Source: a virus
Lineage: Duplodnaviria; Heunggongvirae; Uroviricota; Caudoviricetes
Strand: one strand, 5' to 3'
Length of the DNA: 29,089 nucleotides
Virus record (IMG/VR): IMGVR_UViG_2529292726_000018
Coordinates: 1 to 29,089 of that record
In this document: positions 21,454 to 21,919 of the stretch, in pieces
How the letters are laid out: the number at the start of each line of letters is the position of its first letter
Position numbering within the stretch: the first letter of the stretch is position 1
The notes under the pieces: model-generated
Seen by the model: the letters and a program-made list of their open reading frames with translations, nothing else
Database searches by the model: none
Told to the model about the DNA's origin: nothing
Program-made: the position numbers and the translations under genes

Positions 21454-21726
21454 TTCTCAATCTCTCGATGGCGCAGTGCAGCAGATGCCAGCTGTTCAGG
21501 CTGACGAATGAAGTATAAATAAACTGGCTCCAGTGTAAAGCCCCCACATTGATGGAATAAAAACCAAACAACAGATTGCTGGGATAAAAACAACGCTTAT
21601 TATTAAAAGCGGTTAAACAAATTAAATTTTAATGTTATGCAAATCTACCAGATCACCATAATATCTCATTTGAAAACCACTGAAATAACAACCCTATCAG
21701 GATTAATCATATTAAGGTGAGTAAAT

Positions 21727-21813
21727 ATGGAAAACAACAAATCTGCACATTACGCTCCTTTTTTATCTGTAATACTTTTTGTTTTATGCTGTGCGTGGGC
21801 ATTATTTTTATAA
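21727..21813 (+). CDS. Candidate small hydrophobic peptide (28 aa)
   Basis: MENNKSAHYAPFLSVILFVLCCAWALFL, with a good SD (AAGGTGAG) 6 nt before the ATG. Lies in an AT-rich gap next to the hok locus. Below the track cutoff; may not be expressed. Confidence 0.3.
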   Translation: MENNKSAHYAPFLSVILFVLCCAWALFL

Positions 21814-21919
21814 AAATATTTACAGATAAAATAAACCCGCCAAAGCTGGTTAAGTGTGGGTGCGTTGAGGATGCATAATACATCAGAGGTGGCGAGGGAT
21901 TTCTCCCTCGCCCGGTCTC

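Follow-up and report, generated by a model that had tools for sequence, protein, structure and literature searches.

The window, by which we mean the whole stretch of 29,089 nucleotides of DNA that was analysed, is a lambdoid prophage. Its early-right, nin and late genes lie on the minus strand, and replication-type genes are found farther to the right. DUF1367 and hokD are separated by a gap of 466 bp, and this gap contains a 28-codon open reading frame (ORF) on the plus strand, antisense to the phage early-right/nin operon. The genes and signals around it are as follows.

20025-20687, minus strand: DUF1133 (Q-like antiterminator).
20564-20854, minus strand: YbcO/DUF1364.
20854-21453, minus strand: DUF1367.
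21715-21720, plus strand: Shine-Dalgarno (SD) sequence AGGTGA, with a spacer of 6 nt to the ATG.
21727-21813, plus strand: the 28-codon ORF, with its ATG at 21727 and TAA at 21811-21813.
21920-22075, minus strand: hokD coding sequence, from the PGAP annotation of identical DNA and outside the cassette described below.

Farther along the same strand as hokD, a 167-aa ORF (23492-23995, minus strand) corresponds to a hypothetical protein in the near-identical genome A17 and has no Pfam match.

The product of the 28-codon ORF (21727-21813, plus strand) is the 28-aa peptide MENNKSAHYAPFLSVILFVLCCAWALFL. Its residues 1-11 are polar (MENNKSAHYAP) and residues 12-28 form a hydrophobic stretch of 17 residues, FLSVILFVLCCAWALFL, with a Kyte-Doolittle mean of 2.6-2.9; the C-terminus (...CAWALFL) carries zero charged or polar residues. 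The SD stretch AAGGTGAG spans 21714-21721, and its core AGGTGA fits the extended SD complement of 16S rRNA. GC content is 0.29-0.35 across 21500-21875, compared with 0.45-0.55 for the flanking genes. The original prediction, which described an unannotated hydrophobic ORF of 28 aa with a good SD in an AT-rich gap beside hok, was thus confirmed in position, length, SD and GC content, and the Hok coding sequence does lie adjacent on the opposite strand. The ORF had indeed escaped annotation: it is uncalled in five E. coli loci, in the 40 gap-query matches listed and in four phage records, and no annotation of it was present in the RefSeq or phage records checked. The remark that the peptide has the size and hydrophobicity of a type I toxin also held, since at 28 aa, with 13 of 15 residues hydrophobic, it passes the transmembrane (TM) proxy of Fozo et al. 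(PMC2887945).

As a chance baseline, 46 ORFs of at least 20 aa overlap the 2.5-kb stretch around the 28-codon ORF. Hydrophobic residues are what T-rich codons encode, and T-rich DNA gives hydrophobic peptides automatically. Taken alone, a 28-codon hydrophobic ORF in T-rich DNA is within chance expectation, and the case for a gene rests on comparison.

Of 5426 complete E. coli genomes, 1188 matched a 261-bp gap query (1170 at a coverage of at least 80%), with a median of one place per genome. By identity the matches formed three classes, of 95% or more, 90-95% and about 75%. Within the ~75% class the start, stop, length and SD of the ORF are the same, and the DNA past the stop is unrelated. Lambdoid prophages with the ORF-containing cassette are present in about a fifth (~22%) of the complete E. 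coli genomes; E. coli 042 is one carrier, with the cassette at about NC_017626.1:1547521-1547607 (complement). To avoid circularity, copies in IMG/VR were collected by an anchor placed in a conserved block upstream of the ORF; this external anchor replaced an earlier viral scan whose pattern lay inside the ORF and which was biased to intact copies. The anchor was borne by 163 copies, two of which were cut by contig ends, and the 28-codon ORF was intact in every one of the others (161/161). Conservation in related prophages, on which the original prediction had staked its refutation, was therefore found in all complete copies.

The 161 complete ORF copies comprised 16 nucleotide alleles. When pooled over these alleles, pN/pS was 0.31 in the ORF frame, the lowest of the six frames, and 0.42-1.6 in the other five. 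The dN/dS between E. coli classes was 0.22-0.37, and within E. coli the excess of variable sites at third codon positions was modest (5/10/13). Over 16 protein alleles, 15 of the 28 residues were invariant, including the polar E2, N3, N4, H8 and P11. Indels numbered zero inside the ORF and several in the leader. The most divergent copy, L175, was found by relaxing the peptide pattern of the scan and requiring a synonymous codon that the known alleles do not use; it encodes MENNKSAHYAPFLSIILFVCCFIWALFL. Between the window and L175 there are 15 nucleotide differences in 12 codons, 8 of which are synonymous only, with 4 amino-acid changes in all, and dN/dS for L175 against the other classes was 0.06-0.11. 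Random placement of the same substitutions gave no more amino-acid changes than observed (at most 4) with P = 2e-5 for the window versus L175, our strongest selection statistic and one that depends on this single divergent sequence; the corresponding values were P = 2e-4 for class C2 versus L175 and 5e-3 for the window versus C2. Pairwise comparisons with L175 likewise placed the lowest pN/pS in the ORF frame (0.11-0.18, versus 0.20-1.95 in the other frames); the next-lowest frame, -2, has third positions in common with it and is interrupted by stops in some alleles. Two overlapping ORFs, of 53 aa (21717-21878, plus strand) and 58 aa (21707-21883, minus strand), were rejected as they are not conserved and have stops in other classes. 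One further candidate sequence, L174, was a chance match and not a copy of the cassette. Two metagenome scans for the cassette were also run; one was without matches, and the other gave only L176, again a chance match. Because the copies are intact, the ORF frame has the lowest pN/pS, amino-acid changes are few and many residues are invariant, we conclude that the peptide sequence is under purifying selection. Very probably, the 28-codon ORF is a genuine gene whose product is a tiny membrane peptide. Anchoring on flanking DNA, together with one divergent copy, turned an unconvincing 28-codon ORF into a statistically supported gene.

The conserved DNA extends upstream of the ORF, and the parts of the minimal unit are as follows.

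21594-21814, plus strand: minimal conserved cassette of about 220 bp (AT-rich block, variable spacer, SD and ORF), the only segment common to all contexts.
21596-21643, plus strand: AT-rich block 2, with the imperfect palindrome ATTAAAA-N18-TTTTAAT; a candidate promoter, UP-element or operator region.
21644-21713, plus strand: variable spacer, the presumed 5' leader and the least conserved part, with a weak -10-like TAATAT at 21659-21664.

Block 2 is the best-conserved non-coding part of this unit, with a major-allele frequency of 0.92-0.98 and 88% gap-free identity to L175. The ORF follows at 0.90-0.975 with 83% identity to L175, the SD region shares 86%, and the spacer reaches 0.84-0.875 (21643-21720), with indels, and 63% identity to L175 with 5 gap columns. 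AAGGTG is kept at the SD in classes A, C, D and E, and a weaker AAAGTG is present in class B. All 161 complete copies have block 2 followed by an intact ORF, and block 2 without the ORF was never seen among the anchor-found copies. In the window block 2 is single and the cassette is without tandem copies. Farther upstream, block 1 (21491-21530) shows a conservation of about 0.95.

The edges of the cassette were mapped from the points at which homology between contexts breaks off. The right edge lies 0-3 nt past the stop codon in classes C and E. The left edge lies at about 21476 in most E. coli classes, where the left neighbour switches from DUF1367 to an unrelated 92-aa gene plus DUF968, at about 21570 in L064 and at about 21594 in L175. 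Positions 641-870 of L175 are the only part of that sequence that matches any E. coli DNA. L175 comes from the tail-fibre end of a lambdoid prophage; in the best-matching phage record this region has the integrase. Because of these mosaic junctions and the different neighbours in L175 and the E. coli classes, the cassette can be described as a portable unit of about 220 bp. These results demonstrate the existence, conservation and mobility of the cassette.

L175 (1-6659) is the only non-E. coli copy of the cassette and is a prophage fragment of 6.7 kb, in which the cassette lies about 1.2 kb from a 992-aa tail-fibre gene with a phage_tail_N domain; part of its flank gives a 78% match to Salmonella enterica subsp. 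houtenae.

Two further elements were observed to the left of the minimal cassette in the window. The conserved block at 21491-21540 contains a minus-strand sigma-70-like promoter, TTTACA-16-TATACT (21539..21512, 10/12), about 60 nt upstream of the DUF1367 start. This block is retained where DUF968 and the unrelated 92-aa gene take the place of DUF1367, and L064 and L175 lack it; it may serve the nin/Q-like operon as an internal promoter, or else form a terminator hairpin (GGCTTTACACTGGAGCC, followed by a T-rich tail). The stretch that separates blocks 1 and 2 holds a 20-nt direct repeat, 21545-21564 and 21572-21591 (CACATTGATGGAATAAAAAC and CAGATTGCTGGGATAAAAAC, 85% identical, spacing 27 nt), which could be a protein-binding repeat.

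The same data bear on whether the ORF is incidental and stays open by chance, with the conserved segment acting as a phage DNA or RNA element that codes for no protein: a tR2-like terminator, for example, or a promoter region ahead of the minus-strand nin genes, or an AT-rich spacer bound by H-NS/IHF. The blocks at 21491-21530 and 21623-21642 are conserved at least as well as the ORF, and the upstream conserved blocks hold promoter-like and terminator-like sites on the minus strand; in addition, the chance that the frame stays open after 15-17 random substitutions is 16-29%, and the hydrophobicity of the peptide would follow automatically from T-rich DNA. However, the lowest pN/pS falls in exactly the ORF frame, and the preponderance of synonymous-only codons relative to L175 (8 of 12, P = 2e-5) argues for selection on the encoded peptide. 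A non-coding element would also leave the mosaic boundary at the stop codon and the indel-free ORF unexplained, and block 2 and the ORF have been relocated together to a tail-fibre context with no nin operon following. We therefore consider a purely non-coding element very unlikely.

The right-hand neighbours of the cassette were tabulated across 171 loci. hok lies at +196 in 110 of them, and a co-oriented DUF1971 gene lies at +533 to +591 in 36, of which 29 have no hok within the fetched flank; L005 is an example from a complete genome. This extra plus-strand gene, DUF1971 (TehB-C-terminal-like), is found in class C prophages (L004 3225-3566, L005 3164-3502), where it sits between the small ORF and hok and has about 450 nt of very AT-rich DNA upstream; the gap seems to hold a second moron here, independent of the first. 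With a co-oriented gene following in class C, and with a marginal Rfam Phe_leader match (22 bits, E 0.96), the ORF might be thought a regulatory leader peptide (uORF) that controls a downstream plus-strand gene. That Rfam score is far under the gathering score of 55, and no attenuator-like alternative structure is present. In most loci the next gene, hok, is convergent, and where DUF1971 follows it starts about 450 nt on, past an AT-rich region of its own; operon linkage was rejected. Selection also acts on the peptide sequence itself, polar residues included. A leader peptide is, in our view, extremely improbable.

The hok locus to the right of the ORF comprises, besides the coding sequence, the following elements.

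21834-21851, minus strand: hok mRNA terminator hairpin, read from the sequence, with its U tail at 21833..21826; outside the cassette.
21858-21870: fbi-like element GGGTGCGTTGAGG, which complements the hok mRNA 5' end.
22073-22243, minus strand: hok/sok 5' regulatory region (Rfam RF01794 sok, 101 bits, E 3e-23).

The hokD locus is complete in the window, which is at odds with the usual statements on K-12 hokD. In class B the terminator hairpin is a perfect AACCCGC-CGAA-GCGGGTT. Given this hairpin at 21834-21851 and its U tail, the hok transcript should stop about 15 nt short of the ORF, and homology to K-12 hokD starts only at about 21833.

The original prediction suggested that the ORF might be an unrecognised toxin or antisense partner of the hok locus. 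Such a coupling could take the form of a convergent transcript that modulates the folding or processing of hok mRNA, or of a second toxin or modulator of the locus. The ORF stop lies about 15 nt from the predicted 3' end of hok mRNA, with no plus-strand terminator between them, and hok is the right neighbour in 110 of 171 loci. A 20-nt inverted repeat, complementary at 17 of 20 positions, joins the interior of the ORF (21761-21780, codons 12-18) to the hok U-tail region (21812-21831). Only classes A and B, in which hok is adjacent, have this repeat; classes C, D and E have lost it, and as a class-specific feature it was rejected as part of the conserved unit. The cassette occurs without hok in L005, in L175 and in the 29 loci noted above; conversely, hok without the cassette is common, as the gap DNA was found in 1188 of 5426 genomes compared with 4751 for the neighbouring hok-containing query, and in K-12 Qin rem occupies the position of the cassette. 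The hok locus is complete by itself and has a sok of its own. The suggested link to hok accordingly did not hold: these comparisons show the cassette to be independent of hok, and the two are neighbours by mosaicism and not partners. We judge a functional coupling highly unlikely.

We searched the cassette for expression signals and RNA structure. No plus-strand sigma-70 promoter was found in the cassette by consensus scan, and position weight matrix (PWM) scores gave none above shuffled AT-rich sequence. The only plus-strand candidate at the same aligned position in every class has a -35-like ATGCAA or ATGAAA at 21637 and a -10 at 21659 that reads TAATAT, TAACAT or TAGCAT, so that TAnnAT is kept in all classes; it scores 3-5 bits, compared with a median best score of 7.6 in shuffles. 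If the cassette has a promoter, UP-element or operator region, we infer that block 2 is the likeliest place for it. A terminator is lacking from the cassette, as homology ends at the stop codon, and the hairpins downstream of the ORF are context-specific, none of them being a canonical plus-strand intrinsic terminator. Alifold across classes detected no conserved RNA structure on either strand, with an energy of about -11 kcal/mol over 249 columns and almost no double-sided covariation. Single-sequence folds gave z values of -1.6 and -0.6. The putative mRNA is no more stable than shuffles, and in the comparison across classes its minimum free energy was weaker than theirs; the pairing of the SD in predicted folds was class-specific. 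No complementary repeat was conserved across classes, and the only match to Rfam antitoxin families in the window was hok's own sok.

These searches bear on the proposal that the peptide is the toxin of a new type I toxin-antitoxin module, in which a minus-strand cis-antisense RNA or another sRNA would block translation. The size and hydrophobicity of the peptide and its passing of the TM proxy of Fozo et al. fit such a role. On the minus strand, a promoter-like site, TTTCCA-16-TATGAT (21733..21706), overlaps the ORF start codon and recurs at the same position in four of six classes (A, B, D and E), with -10 hexamers TATGAT, CATAAT and AATAAT. A weak minus-strand hairpin with a U tail at 21611..21594 would terminate a transcript from this site to give a leader-antisense RNA of about 110 nt; changes from G-C to A-T or G-U preserve the 5-bp stem of the hairpin. 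In the alifold consensus, moreover, the SD and AUG can pair with the invariant stretch CUCCUUUU inside the ORF. However, the score of the antisense promoter, 5.8-7.7, is at chance level (shuffle median 7.6), and in class C the site is outside the top matches. The hairpin is without a U tail in L175, and the leader, where the target of an antisense RNA would be, is the least conserved part of the cassette. The absence of conserved structure on either strand and the class-specific pairing of the SD also count against the proposal, as do the absence of tandem duplication, the purely hydrophobic C-terminus and the lack of any Rfam antitoxin besides hok's sok. We therefore regard a type I toxin as unlikely. 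A broader version would make the cassette a mobile toxin or exclusion module, whose membrane-active 28-aa effector, belonging to a new type I toxin family or being a minimal superinfection-exclusion or abortive-infection peptide, would be gated by a cis-antisense transcript that starts at the minus-strand site over its start codon, or by read-through from the early operon of the phage in antisense, so that its synthesis would be limited to the lysogenic state (or to the induced one); we hold this version to be doubtful as well.

Database searches with the peptide placed it in no described family. Profile searches of Pfam, NCBIfam and PHROGs returned no family match and only sub-threshold noise, namely lipoprotein and Rz-like matches that stem from Cys and the hydrophobic stretch. 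We rejected a lipobox, as the AGC-like motif occurs in class C1 only, with LCC, ACC or FCC in the other alleles, and cleavage there would leave a peptide of 8 residues. An exact look-up of three peptide alleles in a collection of 15 billion proteins gave no match. By tblastn the peptide matched in E. coli phages and chromosomes only, and a scan of species-representative genomes with a pattern that was too strict gave one match, in Shigella flexneri. The peptide string was not found in the literature searched, the ORF is unmentioned in the Hok survey and in Fozo et al. (PMC2887945), and these searches yielded no homologue with known function. The peptide is best read as a new family of unannotated small hydrophobic prophage proteins, moron-like accessory products.

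Taken together, these data point to a translated gene for an inner-membrane peptide on a moron-like cassette independent of hok, an account that we consider probable and hold with moderate confidence. The 28-codon ORF would be translated into the peptide, whose C-terminal hydrophobic helix, FLSVILFVLCCAWALFL, would insert into the inner membrane. Recombination has carried the AT-rich unit, some 220 bp long, between accessory-gene positions of lambdoid prophages, so that it lies antisense to the early-right/nin operon in the window and beside the tail-fibre end in L175; as the cassette is placed at different accessory positions, the ORF may be regarded as a moron-like accessory gene. Transcription would start from a weak or regulated promoter, presumably located in or just past block 2 and independent of the phage lytic operons. 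That the polar N-terminal residues are so strictly conserved would fit a specific interaction better than generic membrane damage. By analogy, and speculatively as to its target, the peptide might bind specifically to a membrane protein of the host or of the phage, and could for example exclude superinfecting phages or modulate a membrane complex; it would not be a partner of hok.

About 22% of complete E. coli genomes would then carry an unrecorded gene that is conserved, under selection and invisible to pangenome, defence-system and toxin-antitoxin surveys. Functions for small membrane peptides of prophages, among them toxicity, superinfection exclusion and the regulation of host membrane proteins, are just starting to emerge. 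The ORF offers a compact, well-delimited test case that is simple to synthesise, with a natural allelic series, 15 invariant residues and three genomic contexts.

We finally compared the ORF and its cassette with known systems. YnfS (b4750), an E. coli prophage small protein discovered by ribosome profiling, is encoded in K-12 Qin (L003 1123-1212) and has 29 aa. It shares with our peptide a polar N-terminus, an LCC motif, a hydrophobic tail and a similar length, and its gene likewise lies in a lambdoid cryptic prophage on the strand opposite a Q-like gene; however, it occupies a different prophage position. Homology between the two was rejected, as BLASTP gave no alignment at E up to 100 and there is no DNA similarity. 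The hok/sok system resembles the ORF as a physical neighbour, with a gene for a small membrane peptide in the same prophage gap, but it lies on the opposite strand, is unrelated in sequence and occurs independently. In addition, hok has a mok/sok/fbi architecture recognised by Rfam, which the ORF does not. The ORF peptide has no Pfam or NCBIfam match that would place it in the Hok/Gef family, and the Rfam sok match is found only at 22073-22243.

Like the type I toxins ShoB, IbsA-E, ZorO, DinQ, TisB and Hok, the peptide has fewer than 60 aa and one hydrophobic helix and was missed by annotation, and the ORF sits in an otherwise empty intergenic region with a long conserved upstream region. Type I toxins are frequently duplicated in tandem and have a charged or bulky polar cluster at the C-terminus (search criteria of Fozo et al. 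2010, PMC2887945). In contrast, the ORF is single-copy and its product has no polar or charged C-terminal cluster. Nor does the ORF have a conserved structured leader (63% identity to L175, with indels), an identifiable antitoxin RNA or similarity to any toxin family.

Morons are add-ons of deviant GC content with their own promoter and terminator that are expressed from the repressed prophage (Juhala et al. 2000; Cumby et al. 2012, PMC3594210). HK97 gp15, a small inner-membrane superinfection-exclusion protein, was the first example, and unrecognised ORFs of fewer than 50 aa are predicted to be morons (PMC3594210). The ORF peptide is far shorter than gp15, has a single hydrophobic segment and is without similarity to any described family, and its cassette, in contrast to a typical moron, has no terminator of its own. 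As to a promoter of its own, block 2 always accompanies the ORF, and the candidate at 21637/21659 does not score above shuffles. In its other features the cassette resembles the morons, HK97 gp15 among them: it is an add-on between conserved phage genes, present in some prophages and absent in others; its GC content of 0.29-0.35 departs from the 0.45-0.55 of the flanking genes; it has moved horizontally between phage contexts; and its product is small and predicted to insert into the membrane.
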